A DNA stretch of 50,440 nucleotides from Terriglobia bacterium (GTDB taxonomy: Bacteria > Acidobacteriota > Terriglobia > Bryobacterales > JACQDG01). The notes beneath the pieces are model-generated. The model saw only the letters and a program-made list of their open reading frames with translations. It had not been told where the DNA came from and searched no databases. Of this stretch, positions 142 to 5,990 are shown piece by piece. Within the stretch, counting starts at the first letter, position 1; each line of letters begins with the position of its first letter. The translations under genes and the position numbers were made by a program. The stretch is taken from assembly GCA_041477815.1 (NCBI GenBank), contig JBGOUV010000002.1, positions 1 to 50,440 of the forward strand, read 5' to 3'.

Positions 142-1347
142 GCTTTTTCTGGTAGCGAAGTTGATCGGCCGCAAACTTGCTATCGTCGAACTCTTGACCT
201 GTTGTGATCAGGTGGAAGATCACCCGGGCCAACTTGTGGGCAGCTGCGGTGATTGCCTTGGGAGCGCCGAGTTTGGCTCTCATGCGGTAGAAGTCGCCGA
301 GCGCGCTTTTGCTGTGGTGAAGAGACTGAGCGGCGATTCGTAGTGCGGTAGCGGCTCGGCATTTCACCTTGCGCGTACCGACCCAAAGAACCTTGCCGCC
401 GCTGATGTCGTTGTCCGGGCACAACCCCATCCAGGAGGCGAACGCCGAAGCGCTGCGGAACCTCGTGAAGTCGGGGCCGACCTCTCCGAACAAAGTCTGG
501 GCGATGCCAACGCGAATGCCGGGGATCTTGGTCAGATCGATTCCAAACACGCGCCTCAGTTCGATCCCCAAGCCTCCCTCCGTGGCGGATTTCTTGCTCT
601 GGCCTTTCTGGTGGTCGCTCACGGAAGCGTCTGGCTGGCGGGGCGGTTTGAACTCCTCCAGGAACCGGCGAATCTCGCGATCGCATTCCTCGATGAGCTT
701 CTGGTAGCTGCGATAGACGCCCAGGGATTGTCGCAATGTGAAGATATGCTCGGGCCGGTAGTCGCCCACCAGCGATTTGGCGATGAGCTCTTCGCTGGCC
801 TTGATTCGGTCGTTGCGCAGTTTGGCCAGAACAAACGGATCACGCTCCCCAGCCAGGATCGCATCGACGATGGCCAGTCCGGTCTGACCGGTGATATCGC
901 TGATCACGTGATGCAGTTGCAAATTCATCTGATCCAGCGCTTTCTGCATGTGGTGGACGTGGGTAGCCGCCATCTGTACCAAGCTCTCCCGATGCCGCAG
1001 CAGCGACCGCACAGCACAGACTTCCTGCTCCGGCCGGTACGAGGCCCGCAGTAACCCCACCGAGTGCAAGAACTGCAACCACTGACAATCGGATACGTCG
1101 GTGCGACGCCCGGGCACATTCTTCACATGGCGCGTTGACCAGGCATACTTCCAACCCGCGGTCTTCCAAGATCTGGAACAGCGGAATCCAGTACACGCCG
1201 GTGGATTCCATCGCCACTGTCTTTATCCCGCACTGCTCCAGCCAATCGGCCAACGCGTACAGGTCTTGTGTGAACGTCGGGAAGCCACGCACGTTCTCTG
1301 CGGCTCGGATCTGCGGGCACGGCAACGAAAATCTCCGTCGCTCCGAT
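142..1347 (-). pseudogene. IS110-family (DEDD) recombinase/transposase body, frameshifted, with detached N-terminus
   Basis: Pieces across frames read IGATEIFVAVPAD..ENVRGFPTFTQDL..VAMESTGVYW..CLVNA/HVKNVPGRRTDVSDCQW..SASAFASWMGLCPDNDISGGK..AAAHKLAR. Frameshifts near 1308 and 1130. C-terminus degrades after RYQKKR (~142). Confidence 0.92.
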
Positions 1348-1701
1348 AGCTAGCCCGGCGACTTCCTGCGGAAGTCATTGCAGGCAAGGAACGGACGCAG
1401 GTAATGATCCTGTCTGCCGCAGACGGCGGCAGCTAAGACCGGCCGAGCAATGGAGCTATCAAGCCCGGTAGCTAGCCTGGTTCCGAGTCTCGTGCTCAAT
1501 GCAGTGGTGACGCTTGTGGGCCTGCTGTATGAGCTCGCGGCGATCCCGATTAGGAGAGTGCCCGTTTTTGCGCGACTCGGGCCGTCGTCTGTCGGCAGAA
1601 GGAGACTGCGATGGCGAGGAAGCGCAAGGCTAAGAAGGAGACCAAGGCCAACAACTCGATGTTGCCGGTGATGCGGCCAGATGCGGCTGGAATCGATAGC
1701 T
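1348..1701 (+). mobile_element. Inverted IS110 left end (~260-bp noncoding) plus first 29 codons (1611-1697, MARKRK...DAAGID)
   Basis: AGGAG RBS precedes ATG 1611. DAAGID on + joins IGATEIFVAV on - to give the canonical GIDIG start. CGATAGCTA occurs at both junctions (1344-1352, 1694-1702). Confidence 0.85.
1352..1600 (+). ncRNA. Candidate IS110 bridge-RNA region
   Basis: Long noncoding end upstream of an IS110 ORF. Hairpins such as GACTTCC-tgc-GGAAGTC (1360-1376). AGCTA copies at 1431, 1454 and 1470. Confidence 0.45.
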
Positions 1702-1710
1702 ATTTACAAG

Positions 1711-2413: not shown

Positions 2414-3475
2414 ATGGGATCGCGGACATGGGTGTGTGTTGGGCTGTCGGCGTGGTTGGCAGCGGGGATGGGGTGTCAGCGGGCTGCGCCCGTGGAAGCG
2501 GCGAAAGGCGTTGAAAACAAACCAGCTCCTGCGGTTCCGGTGACTCCGGCGTTGGTCTTGAAGAAGGGACAGGTGCGGGCCACCGGGACCATCCAGGCCG
2601 TCCGGGCCTACACGGTGCAGGTGCCCCAGATTGCGGGGTTGCCGCAGGGACCGCAAAGCCGCGTAACGCTGGTGAAGCTGGCGCCGAACGGGACCCGGGT
2701 CCAGGCGGGGGATGTTCTGGCCGAGTTCGACCGGACTACGCAACTGGATGCAGGCCGGGAGGCGCAGGCCAAGCACGAGGACTTGTCCCACCAGGTGCGG
2801 CAGAAGGCGGCCCAGAACCAGAGCGACCAGGAGAAGCGGGCGGTGGAGCTGAAAGAGGCCGAGGCGGAGCTGGCCCGGGCGCAAATTCAGTTGCGCAAGG
2901 GTCCGATTCTGAGCGAGATCGACCGGCTGAAAAACGAAGAGCGGTCGCGGGGCGCCCAGGCGCGGGTGAGGAGCCTGAAGATCATCGATGAACACCGGCG
3001 GAAGGCCGAGGCGGCGGCGTTGCGGATCCTGGAGCTGCAGGCGGAGCGTCAGAAGGTGGCGCTGGACCGGGCGCAGAGGAACCTGGAGAAGCTGGTGTTG
3101 AAGGCGACCATCGTGGGGATGGTGGCGCTTGAAAACATCTGGCGCGGGGGATCGATGGGGAACGCGCAGGAGGGCGACCAGTTGTGGCCGGGCCAGCCGC
3201 TGCTGAAGATTTTCGATCCGTCGGAGATGCTGGTGCAGACCAGGGTCGGCGAGCCGGACGGGGCGGTGCTGAAAGAGGGCGCCCTGGCCACCGTGTACCT
3301 GGATGCGTACCCCGACGCGGTGTTCCGGGCGAAGTTCGAGGCAGCGAGTCCGGTGGCGACGGCGGCCATGGGGAGCCCGATCAAGAACTTCACGGCACGA
3401 TTCCGGTTGGAACAGACCGATCCGCGGCTGCTGCCGGATCTGTCGGCGGCGGTGGTGATCGGGGGTGAACAGTGA
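2414..3475 (+). CDS. Efflux periplasmic adaptor (HlyD/MacA-like) 1, probable lipoprotein
   Basis: LAAGMGC lipobox-like signal, lipoyl halves flanking a coiled coil, RLLPDLSA end motif. Confidence 0.85.
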   Translation: MGSRTWVCVGLSAWLAAGMGCQRAAPVEAAKGVENKPAPAVPVTPALVLKKGQVRATGTIQAVRAYTVQVPQIAGLPQGPQSRVTLVKLAPNGTRVQAGDVLAEFDRTTQLDAGREAQAKHEDLSHQVRQKAAQNQSDQEKRAVELKEAEAELARAQIQLRKGPILSEIDRLKNEERSRGAQARVRSLKIIDEHRRKAEAAALRILELQAERQKVALDRAQRNLEKLVLKATIVGMVALENIWRGGSMGNAQEGDQLWPGQPLLKIFDPSEMLVQTRVGEPDGAVLKEGALATVYLDAYPDAVFRAKFEAASPVATAAMGSPIKNFTARFRLEQTDPRLLPDLSAAVVIGGEQ

Positions 3476-4713
3476 GGCGCTGGGTCCGGCGGGCCGGCGT
3501 GATGGTGGTGGTGTTGGGCGCCCTGGGGGCGGCGGGGTTCGCTGCCTGGAGGATGCGGAAGGCGCAGGCGGCGGAGTCGCTGCCGACGGCGCCGGCCCGC
3601 AAGGGGGACTTCCTGGTGATCGTGCGCTGCCGGGGCGAGTTGAAGGCCCGGCGCAGCGTCCAGGTCACGGCGCCGGTGAATGTGCCCGAGCTGCGGATCG
3701 TGTGGCTGGCGGCGTCGGGGACGATGGTCAAGGAAAACGAGTCTATCATCAAGTTCGATCCCTCCAGCGTCAAGCAGCAGTTGAAGGAGAAAGAGGCGGC
3801 CTTGAAACAGGCGCAGGCGGCCCTGGACCAGGCCATCGCGCAAGGGCGGCTGGCCGGCGAGCAGGACAAGCTGGAGCTGGCCGACGCCCGCTACCGGACC
3901 GAGCGCGCCAAGCTGGAGGTGTCCAAGGCGGAGATCGTATCGGCGCTCCAGGCCGAGGAGAGCAAGATCGAGCTGGGCCTGGCGGAACAGAAAATGGGCT
4001 TGGAGCAGGCCAAGGGGAAGCTGAACGATACCTCCAACGAGGCGAAGGTCGCGTCACTGCGGCGGGCCCGCGACAAAGCCAAGGATGAGTTGGAGCTGAC
4101 CGAATACCGGCTGTCGCAGATGGAGCTGGAAGCGCCCATCACCGGGTTGATCAACTACCTGCCGAACAATTCGCAGGGCTGGATCAACGCCAAGCCGTTC
4201 AAGGTGGGCGACCAGGTGTGGCCGGGAGCCGCGGTGGCCGAGGTTCCGGACCTGGAGACCCTGGAGATGGAAGGAAAGGTCGAGGAGATCGACCGGGGAA
4301 AGATCGCCGTGGAGCAGCAGGTGCGGATCCGCATCGATGCGCTGCCGGAAACGACGTTCCCCGCGAAACTGGAGCAGCTCTCTCCGATGACCGTCATGGG
4401 CTGGGATTGGCCGCCCACCCGGACGTTCCGGGGGTTCGCCAAGCTGGAAAAGATCGACCCGCGGCTGCGGCCGGGGATGAATGGGGCCATGGACGTGGTC
4501 GTGAACAAGATCCCTAATGCCATCAGCGTGCCGGTGAAAGCGCTGTTCACGCTGGGCGGGAGGCCGGTGGTGTACGTGGCCGAGAAGGATGGCTACCGGT
4601 CCGTGCAGGTGGATGTGCTGGCGCGGAATCCGGATGAGGCGGCGGTCCAGGGCATTCCGGGCGGCGTGAACCTGGCCCTGGTGGAGCCGGATAAAAAGGA
4701 TCTGAAGCGATGA
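3472..4713 (+). CDS. Efflux periplasmic adaptor 2
   Basis: N-terminal TM, coiled coil, KVGDQVWPG, LRPGMNG. GTGA overlap with the previous gene. Confidence 0.88.
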   Translation: MRRWVRRAGVMVVVLGALGAAGFAAWRMRKAQAAESLPTAPARKGDFLVIVRCRGELKARRSVQVTAPVNVPELRIVWLAASGTMVKENESIIKFDPSSVKQQLKEKEAALKQAQAALDQAIAQGRLAGEQDKLELADARYRTERAKLEVSKAEIVSALQAEESKIELGLAEQKMGLEQAKGKLNDTSNEAKVASLRRARDKAKDELELTEYRLSQMELEAPITGLINYLPNNSQGWINAKPFKVGDQVWPGAAVAEVPDLETLEMEGKVEEIDRGKIAVEQQVRIRIDALPETTFPAKLEQLSPMTVMGWDWPPTRTFRGFAKLEKIDPRLRPGMNGAMDVVVNKIPNAISVPVKALFTLGGRPVVYVAEKDGYRSVQVDVLARNPDEAAVQGIPGGVNLALVEPDKKDLKR

Positions 4714-5990
4714 AAAGGTGGATCGCGATTCCGGTGGGGCTGGGGACGCTGGCGCTGGCGGGTTGGGGAGGCTTCCGCGCGTATAAGGGAGCGAAGCCCG
4801 CGGAAGCGCCGGCGTCGGCCATTCCGATGACCCCGGTGCGGCGGGGCGATGTGACCTTTACGGTGGTGGCAAAGGGCGAGCTGGCGGGCGGCAATTCGGA
4901 GATGATGTACGCCCCGATGGTGGGGGGAGGAGCCCTGGCCATCACAGAGATGAAGGAGTCCGGGGATCTGGTGAACGAAAAGGAAGTGGTGGTGCAGTTC
5001 GACACCACCGAGCAGGAGTTCAAGCTGAAGGAAGCCGAGGCGGATCTGGCGGAGGCGGAGCAGCAGGTGACGCAGGCCGAGGCGGAGAGTAAGGCCCTGG
5101 AAGAAGAGGCGCAGTATGCGCTGCTGAAGTCGCGGTCGGAGCTGCAGATCGCCGAGCTGGAGACGCGCCGGAACGAGCTGCTGCCGGCGATCGTGGCCAG
5201 CCAGAATAATCTGGCGGTGGAAGCGGCCCGGGACAAGATGCAAAAGCTGGAGAAAGACCTGGGGGAGCGGCTGCAAACGGCCAAGGCGGGGATCGCGATC
5301 CAGCAGGCGGGGCGGGCGAAGGCCAAGGTGGCGGCGGACACGGCGCGGCGGAACATCGATTTGATGACCCTGAAAACGAAGTCGGGCGGATACGTGGCCC
5401 GGCAGGCGAACATGGAAGGGAACTGGCGGTGGGGATCGTACATGCCGTCGCTGCAGGTGGGCGACATGGTGCGGGCCGGCATGGCCGTGGCCCAGATCCC
5501 GGATCTGAAGAACTGGGAGGCTACGGCGCGGATCGGGGAGCTGGACCGCGGCCATTTGTCGCCCGGTCAGCAGGCCACCCTGCTCGTCATCGCGCTGCCG
5601 GACAAGAAGTTCAAGGCCAAGCTGAAGAGCATGGGCGGGACCACCGGACCGCCTTGGGATCGCTACTTCGAGTCGCGCTTCACGCTCGACGATCCGACCC
5701 CGGAGCTGCGACCGGGCATGAGCGCCCGGCTGCTGATTACCACCGGCGAGATGAAGAACGTGCTGTGGCTGCCGTCGCAGGCGTTGTTCGAAAGCGACGG
5801 CCGCAGGTTTGTGTACGTGCAGTCGGGGGAGAGCTTCACGCCGGCCGACGTGAAGCTGGTGCGGCGCAGCGAGAGCCAGGTGGTGATCGAAGGACTGCCG
5901 GAGGGGCGGGTGGTGGCGCTGGCGAATCCGGACATGATGAAGAAGACCAAACAGCGCGTGGGGGGAGCGCTCGAGGCCATCAAAAAATGA
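4710..5990 (+). CDS. Efflux periplasmic adaptor 3
   Basis: N-terminal TM, VRRGDV, QVGDMV, LRPGMSA. ATGA overlap. Confidence 0.88.
   Translation: MKRWIAIPVGLGTLALAGWGGFRAYKGAKPAEAPASAIPMTPVRRGDVTFTVVAKGELAGGNSEMMYAPMVGGGALAITEMKESGDLVNEKEVVVQFDTTEQEFKLKEAEADLAEAEQQVTQAEAESKALEEEAQYALLKSRSELQIAELETRRNELLPAIVASQNNLAVEAARDKMQKLEKDLGERLQTAKAGIAIQQAGRAKAKVAADTARRNIDLMTLKTKSGGYVARQANMEGNWRWGSYMPSLQVGDMVRAGMAVAQIPDLKNWEATARIGELDRGHLSPGQQATLLVIALPDKKFKAKLKSMGGTTGPPWDRYFESRFTLDDPTPELRPGMSARLLITTGEMKNVLWLPSQALFESDGRRFVYVQSGESFTPADVKLVRRSESQVVIEGLPEGRVVALANPDMMKKTKQRVGGALEAIKK

Follow-up and report, generated by a model that had tools for sequence, protein, structure and literature searches.

A base-exact 350-bp inversion in a decayed IS110 element of a Terriglobia bacterium and its possible origin

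The window analysed here, a stretch of 50,440 nucleotides, is the start of contig C567 in the assembly of a Terriglobia bacterium (605 contigs, 6.77 Mb, 91.9% complete). Near its beginning lies an IS110 element in which the left end and the first 30 codons of the recombinase gene are turned round relative to the rest of the gene. The layout is that of one clean 350-bp inversion in real DNA, fixed in the sampled population, and the inversion by itself inactivated the recombinase gene. As to its origin, it is proposed tentatively that the element's own recombinase reacted aberrantly, and once only, at the palindromic remnant of its target; the probability of this is judged slightly short of even. 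The evidence on the junctions comes from Logan contigs of four runs (X1 to X4, from four studies) aligned to positions 1-2600, and that on the gene from an intact relative, L020, whose 456-amino-acid recombinase was the tblastn query against positions 1-1800. A repeated mobile element that interrupts the gene is termed element X. The parts concerned are listed below, with a slash marking the point of exchange.

1344-1352, plus strand: left inversion junction CGAT/AGCTA, crossover zone T1347-A1348, bridged by a contig of run X2
1694-1702, plus strand: right inversion junction CGAT/AGCTA, crossover zone T1697-A1698, bridged by contigs of runs X1-X4
1611-1697, plus strand: codons 1-30 of the recombinase, including the start codon and ending in the first DEDD aspartate (GID), located by tblastn with L020
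142-1347, minus strand: recombinase body, codons 31 to ~434, with two frameshifts and truncated by element X, located by tblastn with L020
1-141, no strand assigned: outer end of element X, interrupting the 3' end of the recombinase gene, recognized from shared contig ends; the contig starts inside X

The recombinase of L020 was recovered in four pieces. Residues 1-30 match the plus strand at 1611-1697, which translates to MARKRKAKKETKANNSMLPVMRPDAAGID (MARK...AAGID), while the minus strand, read leftward from 1347, continues with IGATEIFVAV. On that strand, residues 25-43 match frame -1 at 1365-1309, of which only residues 31-43 (1347-1309) are gene sequence, the first ones (25-30) being read-through across the junction. 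Residues 40-102 follow in frame -2 (1319-1131) and residues 101-434 in frame -3 (1138-140), which places one frameshift within 1309-1319 and the other within 1131-1138. The longest piece is 83% identical to L020 over 334 amino acids. The 9-mer CGATAGCTA occurs twice in the window, at 1344-1352 and 1694-1702, where 0.09 copies are expected, and at least two copies were found in 0 of 100 shuffles. A transposase split between opposite strands, with CGAT-AGCT-A at both junctions, had been described in an earlier note made from the letters alone, and the tblastn pieces and the two 9-mers bear it out.

Flipping positions 1348-1697 (350 bp) restores GGAATCGAT/ATCGGAGCG, the second part starting with ATCGGA, with no base gained, lost or discounted. 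The restored string matches intact relatives (L029 reads GGAATCGATATCGGAGCGACC), and the closest of them, L044 (90-92% DNA identity), is collinear through GGGATCGATATCGGGG. The restoration of GIDIG by a flip was likewise claimed in the earlier note, on condition that one AGCT copy be discounted; the restoration stands and is exact, while the discount is not needed. Un-flipped and in gene orientation, the left junction reads ...GTAAATAGCT/AGCT-AG-CCCGGCG... and the internal site ...GGAATCGAT/ATCGGAGCG..., both breakpoint sites being short palindromes (CGATATCG and TAGCTAGCTA). The inverted segment comprises 4 nt of flank, the left end with the putative bridge-RNA gene, the ribosome site and codons 1-30, and a 7-nt inverted repeat, ATAGCTA, is left at the present junctions.

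The inner breakpoint, GAT/ATC, falls between the codon for the first DEDD aspartate and that for the isoleucine after it, as had been noticed earlier. The motifs GID, MEST and TDVSD were found across the recombinase pieces and may be assigned to D/E/D/D by analogy with D11, E60, D102 and D105 of IS621 (PMC11208158). Because the DEDD domain of L020 begins at residue 27, the break between D30 and I31 would accordingly lie at the first catalytic aspartate, the counterpart of IS621 D11. The family assignment comes from Pfam. The piece at 68-1126 scored 42.7 bits with PF02371 (Transposase_20; cut-off 21.3), by which the C-terminal domain is present, and 26.9 bits with PF01548 (DEDD_Tnp_IS110; profile positions 91-153), the latter below the 29-bit cut-off because the piece covers only part of the domain. 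Intact L020 reaches 81.8 bits with PF01548 over residues 27-171, the domain starting at AGIDIG. The Pfam matches and the gene restored by the flip confirm both the IS110 identity and the single inversion proposed earlier.

The right junction (between 1697 and 1698) was bridged in four of four runs, each contig with 0 differences: record 7 of X1 (1537-2600), record 16 of X2 (1654-2068), record 21 of X3 (1412-1739) and record 30 of X4 (1627-1821). The left junction (between 1347 and 1348) was bridged in one run, by record 15 of X2 (1270-1668); record 2 of X1 (410-1363) extends just 16 nt beyond it and was excluded from the count. Neither strand-changing joints at either junction nor the un-inverted orientation were found among the contigs of the four runs, one of which may be the source sample itself; support was counted in contigs, so that minor variants below contig level remain possible. 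Among 80 related loci, which originate almost wholly from Acidobacteriota metagenome-assembled genomes, none of the 75 with a left end is flipped, all being collinear with the gene, and the other five lack a left end.

The element is a decayed, single-copy, ordinary member of the bridge-recombinase-type family, on which the inversion is an unusual scar. Its reading frame is interrupted by the inversion, by two frameshifts and by the insertion of element X, and this copy is a relic, not an active member of its family, whatever the orientation of its left end. Only one copy is present in the 6.77-Mb assembly. The contig word depth of the element was 5.05 in run X1 and 5.1 in X2, compared to 6 in both for the flank; with one figure per contig, these values are indicative only. 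Self-inactivation, the outcome expected in the earlier note, is what the inversion brought about; likewise, the alignment to relatives suggested there showed intact copies to be collinear, with no second copy in the genome.

Three further features concern the left end and its flank.

1348-1351, plus strand: four target-flank bases AGCT, carried with the inverted segment, judged from the L044 flank and from 16 subgroup left junctions
1352-1353, plus strand: probable core dinucleotide AG at the left end, from its invariance in both guide segments of 20 variants, the boundaries of multi-copy elements and the empty site L104
1698-1733, plus strand: the element's original flank on the left side, in the intergenic space downstream of an adenylate-kinase-family gene, from the Pfam ADK match next door

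Judged from intact relatives, the left tip lies at about 1349-1354 of the window, with the breakpoint 4-6 nt outside it. In L044, the flank ...GAACTTGG is followed by GCTAGCCCGGCGACTTCC; since its identity to the window starts at 1349, the left tip coincides with the left edge of the inverted segment. The window sequence preceding 1349 (...CTCCGATA) is unlike L044, whose flank diverges upstream of GCT-AG. The earlier note had staked its reading on intact copies beginning near position 1350, and this is where L044 begins. An 83%-identical element is present seven times in one genome (L020-L025 and L051); its copies share the span from CTAGCATGGG... to ...GAGTTCCTTAGGAG between unrelated flanks, and further multi-copy groups (one of six copies, several of two to five) give equivalent limits. 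The missing right end of the present copy was located on contig C16, where the other end of element X is followed by the last codons (QELKLRAKAKAMGFVLIPLELAR and a stop) and then by ...GGTGAGTTCCTTAGGAG. The right end itself is ...GTGAGTTCCTTAGGAG, and the right flank, TCAATCAGGG, adjoins an outer-membrane beta-barrel gene. The element, ~1.63 kb long, is thus inserted between an adenylate-kinase-like gene and this beta-barrel gene. In another genome, a repeat copy that holds no element, L104 (...CCACTTTCTCAGG-AG-ACGACTT...), joins the flanks of occupied copies via one AG-containing stretch. Insertion is site-specific, without terminal inverted repeats and with a short core at both ends; by comparison of these boundaries the core of the clade would be AG, and its cut geometry can be drawn up by analogy.

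Two short repeats were observed in connection with element ends. The 11-mer TAGATGATCGT of the tandem duplication at 1711-1734 (see below) recurs beside the left junction of the related element L026, as a 20-nt inverted-repeat pair in the flank, and is absent elsewhere in the source genome. A short repeat ending in AGTTTCTTAGGAG is found on contigs C148, C371 and C554; it was rejected as representing further element copies, its length being just ~90 nt.

Between the left tip and the start codon lies a region with the features of a guide RNA.

1354-1610, plus strand: left-end non-coding region, a putative bridge-RNA-like structured RNA, now facing away from the gene body; from covariation, fold and identity
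1468-1477, plus strand: guide segment G1, GTAGCT-AG-CC, a candidate left-target-guide analogue, matching its own left junctions
1549-1558, plus strand: guide segment G2, ATTAGG-AG-AG, a candidate left-donor-guide analogue, co-varying with the right end

This region of 260 nt can be aligned across 20 variants, and in the present copy it is 81-91% identical to the left ends of relatives. The consensus fold of 16 variants contains 47 pairs, 23 of them with compensatory changes, and the single-sequence fold has a z of -3.7. An Rfam scan of 1-2400 gave no bridge-RNA family and two chance-level snoRNA matches (E 0.16 and 0.51). G1 and G2 (10 nt each) share the frame CCCG-N6-AG-N2-TG; in none of the 20 aligned variants does either segment depart from AG at this position. 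Read in sense, G1 gives 6 nt of left target, the AG core and the first 2 nt of the element; a variant's own G1 matched its own left junction with a mean fraction of 0.88, compared to 0.63 for the guides of other variants (59 distinct contexts). G2, in sense, gives the last bases of the right end and the core, and the right-end variants TTAGGAG, TCAGGAG, TTGGGAG and TTAGAAG each pair with a matching G2. The left-target and left-donor guides of IS621 are top-strand sense and include the core (PMC11208160); since they are so defined, G1 and G2 are taken as their analogues and the shared AG as the core. From this sequence comparison, the left-end RNA is a candidate bispecific guide RNA of the bridge-RNA type. 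Other cores were considered and rejected: CT, as G2 does not read left donor and CT; the first AG of TTAGGAG, as the right boundaries in five multi-copy groups fall after GGAG; and the AG upstream of TTCC, which is contradicted by the empty site L104.

In two further loci, L075 and L089, variants with the left-target guide TTAG[GA]-AG sit directly after GAGTTC-CTTAG[GA]-AG, the right end of a related element. Some members of the clade thus appear to target the right ends of relatives, their target and donor guides being nearly alike.

The bases at the two junctions can be accounted for by a reciprocal exchange at a 2-nt TA microhomology, which reproduces both without duplication or loss. The flank rebuilt under this conservative model ends in CTAGCT before the AG core. 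Among 16 junctions of the subgroup, CTAGCT is found at five, more often than any other left-target hexamer, and position -6 is C in 13 of these junctions, T in two, G in one and A in none. CTAGCT-AG is the target of L040 and L050, for example. The 12-mer ATAGCTAGCTAG has a further copy in the genome, on contig C389. CTAGCTAG reads identically on both strands, and the flank prolongs the AGCT period. The point of exchange, located 4 nt from the AG core on its outer side, forms the centre of a 10-bp palindrome, TAGCT/AGCTA; whichever strand is read, a guide-matching hexamer meets an AG there. On these target statistics alone, a conservative exchange appears favoured over a 4-bp duplication; it would predict AGCTAGCT-AG in the original flank, while a duplication would predict a single AGCT.

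The palindrome CTAGCTAG has four copies in the source genome compared to ~103 expected, and GTAGCTAG eight compared to ~207, both expectations being naive ones from length alone, without composition correction; by these naive figures, the preferred target of the element is very scarce in its host. On the reverse strand of C389, at ~4063-4090, the sequence reads ATAGCTAGCT-AG-TTCCTTAGG-AG-ACTCC, a perfect left-target hexamer with AG, to which the terminal 11 bases of the element's right end are directly joined. This site, which adjoins a putative integrase gene, could be either the footprint of a lost element or a hot target. As a footprint, it would imply loss of the element through recombination at the upstream AG in the right end (AG-TTCC, conserved in all variants).

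In the reading put forward here, the recombinase with its RNA would have bound a pseudo-target at its own left end in the wrong orientation, either backwards or slipped, and would have exchanged strands with the poorly matching internal site GAT/ATC, with AT in place of the AG core. The product would be a conservative, reciprocal inversion of 350 bp that includes 4 nt of flank, splits the gene and disables the element, as a rare off-target reaction that happened once. Consistent with this, one breakpoint is only a few bases away from the tip, the whole element being ~1.63 kb long, and the junctions are exact, with no base gained or lost, as expected of an exchange by a recombinase. DNA lying between two sites of opposite orientation can be inverted by IS110 recombinases (PMC11208160). 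For IS621, recombination has also been reported where the site matches by half or not at all; of 168 insertion sites, 27 were placed in a 'none' category (10.64898/2026.08.31.748434). Weak hints come from the internal site, at which 6 of the 10 nt beyond GAT-AT agree with the right-donor arm (3.5% of positions do so equally well), and from the segment ends, whose inner 15 nt are inverted-alike in register at 8 of 15 (background 2.9%). GATATC agrees with the left-target guide G1 at 4 of 8 positions.

Several points weigh against an action of the recombinase. None of the matches at the internal site is significant after about eight comparisons, and neither G1 nor G2 gives a convincing in-register match by which RNA guidance to GATATC could be supported. 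The exchange dinucleotide is TA and not the AG core, with an offset of 4 nt from the point where left target and core canonically meet. The top strand of IS621 is cut 3' of the core (PMC11208158); by this analogy, the present exchange point would fit only a bottom-strand cut of the pseudo-target. The AG core and the cut geometry are themselves taken from comparison and are probable rather than certain, and the right junction of L057, which has an extra G, fits AG-core boundaries less well. The antisense guides (right target and right donor) were not found, junction calls being unreliable in the periodic sequence, and because of this site recognition cannot be fully scored. As 0 of 75 related loci are inverted, there is no sign of a tendency encoded by the element, and two exact-pattern scans of metagenome contigs with the flank gave 0 matches to an empty site or un-inverted allele. 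Of the earlier proposal that the element recombined its own end with GATATC, the nearness of the breakpoint to the tip holds, while the crossover 4 nt outside the probable AG core and the lack of a convincing guide match speak against it. In a wider reading, each insertion into the palindromic target CTAGCT-AG would leave at the left junction a target copy that the guide RNA could read backwards; the recombinase could then act on its own end the wrong way round and invert the promoter-proximal part of the element, a built-in route of self-destruction for RNA-guided insertion sequences with palindromic targets. This wider reading is considered rather improbable.

Host illegitimate recombination, in which short palindromes were broken twice or led replication to switch templates, with inverted rejoining via the TA microhomology, is a considerable possibility, though we hold it to be a minority one. 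It would account for a microhomology of just 2 nt, a crossover away from the AG core and an internal site without guide complementarity; both sites are short palindromes (CGATATCG and TAGCTAGCTA), and the event is unique among 75 related loci. On the other hand, it leaves to coincidence a breakpoint 4-6 nt from the tip of the ~1.63-kb element, which for a random break inside it has a chance of about 1 in 100, both junctions are exact, which is unusual for end-joining, and a perfect palindrome of 8-10 bp is too short to extrude. In the version given in the earlier note, the element's end had recombined with GATATC by a staggered cut that duplicated AGCT, from an original junction AAATAGCT-AG-CCCGG with a single AGCT. 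This would explain why AGCT is present at both junctions and would place the crossover of the right junction exactly on the canonical boundary between left target and core. It requires, however, an A at position -6, seen in 0 of 16 subgroup junctions, and a stagger of 4 nt, where that of IS621 is 2 nt around the core (PMC11208158). The conservative model works without the extra step, the TA exchange fitting both junctions, and ATAGCTAGCTAG is present elsewhere in the genome; the duplication is unneeded and quite improbable.

A reversible, programmed switch of recombinase expression, the second alternative of the earlier note, is very unlikely. The 7-nt inverted repeat ATAGCTA at the present junctions would suit it, and the IS110 family includes dedicated invertases such as Piv, but two frameshifts and a foreign insertion mean that flipping back would not restore the gene. 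Moreover, a single orientation was found in the contigs of four runs, none of 75 related loci is inverted, the border repeat is only 7 nt long, and neither both orientations nor a functional recombinase were found. Least probable of all, and hardly to be entertained, is an assembly or amplification chimera, to which the closeness of the locus to a contig end (1.3 kb), in an assembly of 605 contigs, would be favourable. It is opposed by independently assembled contigs that bridge the right junction in four runs and the left one in one run with 0 differences, by the existence of both reciprocal junctions, and by a shared sequence of 9 nt, far below any assembler word length; a chimera had been named in the earlier note among the findings that would refute its reading. 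Three other routes were rejected. Two head-to-head copies with two deletions would need two independent deletions ending at the same GAT/ATC, which is unparsimonious. Inversion through the present 7-nt inverted repeat would need an ancestral gene with AGCT inside GATATC, which no relative has. Staggered cuts of restriction or gyrase type do not, by reasoning, reproduce both junctions without loss of gene bases.

Development of bridge recombinases into programmable editors is under way, and the reactions they perform off-target or in the wrong orientation are actively studied. If it was made by the enzyme, the base-exact inversion beside the element's own end would be an example of a natural misfire. 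If self-destruction through the palindrome is real, palindromic targets would carry a cost for the element, and the locus would be a natural record of it that includes an exchange between partners with unlike cores. The present weight is modest, since the case consists of a single dead copy from a single uncultured bacterium of soil or sediment, and the enzyme's part in it is inferred. The main value at present is a clean, well-delimited case and a guide layout (sense-strand guides, AG core) for an IS110 clade centred on Acidobacteriota.

Element X is inserted at codon ~434 of the IS110 recombinase. Bases 1-141 of the window are common to the contig ends C159, C284 and C512, which diverge after 141, and in all 80 related loci the match breaks off near query residue 329 of 353, at the start of element X. 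The other end of X was found on C16 and on the contig ends C15, C503, C97 and C158; in total, X reaches nine contig ends, its interior being absent from the assembly. The last 20 nt are the same outward at both ends (...ACAGATTCCTGCGCAGAGCC), with AAAAAGC on both sides inside the IS110 gene. Its contig word depth in run X1 was 21.8. The last 33 codons of X (...GYKNLRYLLLKAQRMAV...) matched no Pfam family at E up to 1.

On the other side of the element, an adenylate-kinase-family protein is encoded at 1734-2339 on the minus strand (Pfam ADK, 112.7 bits). Ahead of its P-loop it has a hydrophobic, signal-peptide-like leader, MRLPSLTAALLLLLAGTAVPG, an uncommon feature in a cytoplasmic kinase. Two exact tandem copies of the 12-mer ACGATCATCTAA, at 1711-1734, overlap the stop codon of its gene. 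Further along, three successive genes for HlyD-family membrane-fusion proteins (353, 413 and 426 amino acids, each with HlyD_D23 and HlyD_3) are located at 2414-5990 on the plus strand. A promoter and terminator scan of 1250-1800 gave nothing informative.

In the literature searched, supplements being outside the search, no description of a natural self-inversion of an IS110 left end was found. The DEDD invertases Piv and MooV of Moraxella and Neisseria belong to the same superfamily and catalyse inversion. Their inversion sites are dedicated, the recombinase gene lies outside the segment, and both orientations are present; none of this holds for the present locus. In the DDE insertion sequences IS10, IS1 and IS30, an element end attacks a nearby site on the same molecule and the intervening DNA is inverted. 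Such intramolecular transposition proceeds by DDE chemistry and leaves a target duplication in inverted arrangement, unlike the present case, in which no duplication is required and the family is DEDD/serine.

The closest likeness is with the bridge elements of the IS621/IS110 type (Durrant et al. 2024, PMC11208160; Hiraizumi et al. 2024, PMC11208158). They have a conserved RNA at the left end with two guides, one for left target and core and one for left donor and core, which the candidate guide RNA described here resembles, and they insert site-specifically, one dinucleotide standing on either side of the element and nothing else being duplicated. The present clade differs from IS621 as described there in its core, probably AG instead of CT, and in its guide segments, which are of 6+2 nt followed by 2 nt, and its left-end RNA matches no Rfam model; the present copy is moreover broken and rearranged. 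Programmed inversion by a bridge recombinase (PMC11208160) also acts on ~0.35-1 kb between opposite sites on one molecule without loss of bases. In that system the core is common to both sites and each is matched in full by the two RNA loops, whereas here the sites are a target look-alike at the element's own end and a site with no clear match, and the dinucleotide they share is TA. In the study of IS621 off-targets (Xie et al. 2026, 10.64898/2026.08.31.748434), one arm and the core suffice and some sites have no recognisable match, which resembles the situation described here. The events reported there keep the CT core, while at the present locus the cores of the partners differ (AG and AT) and the reaction was intramolecular and natural.

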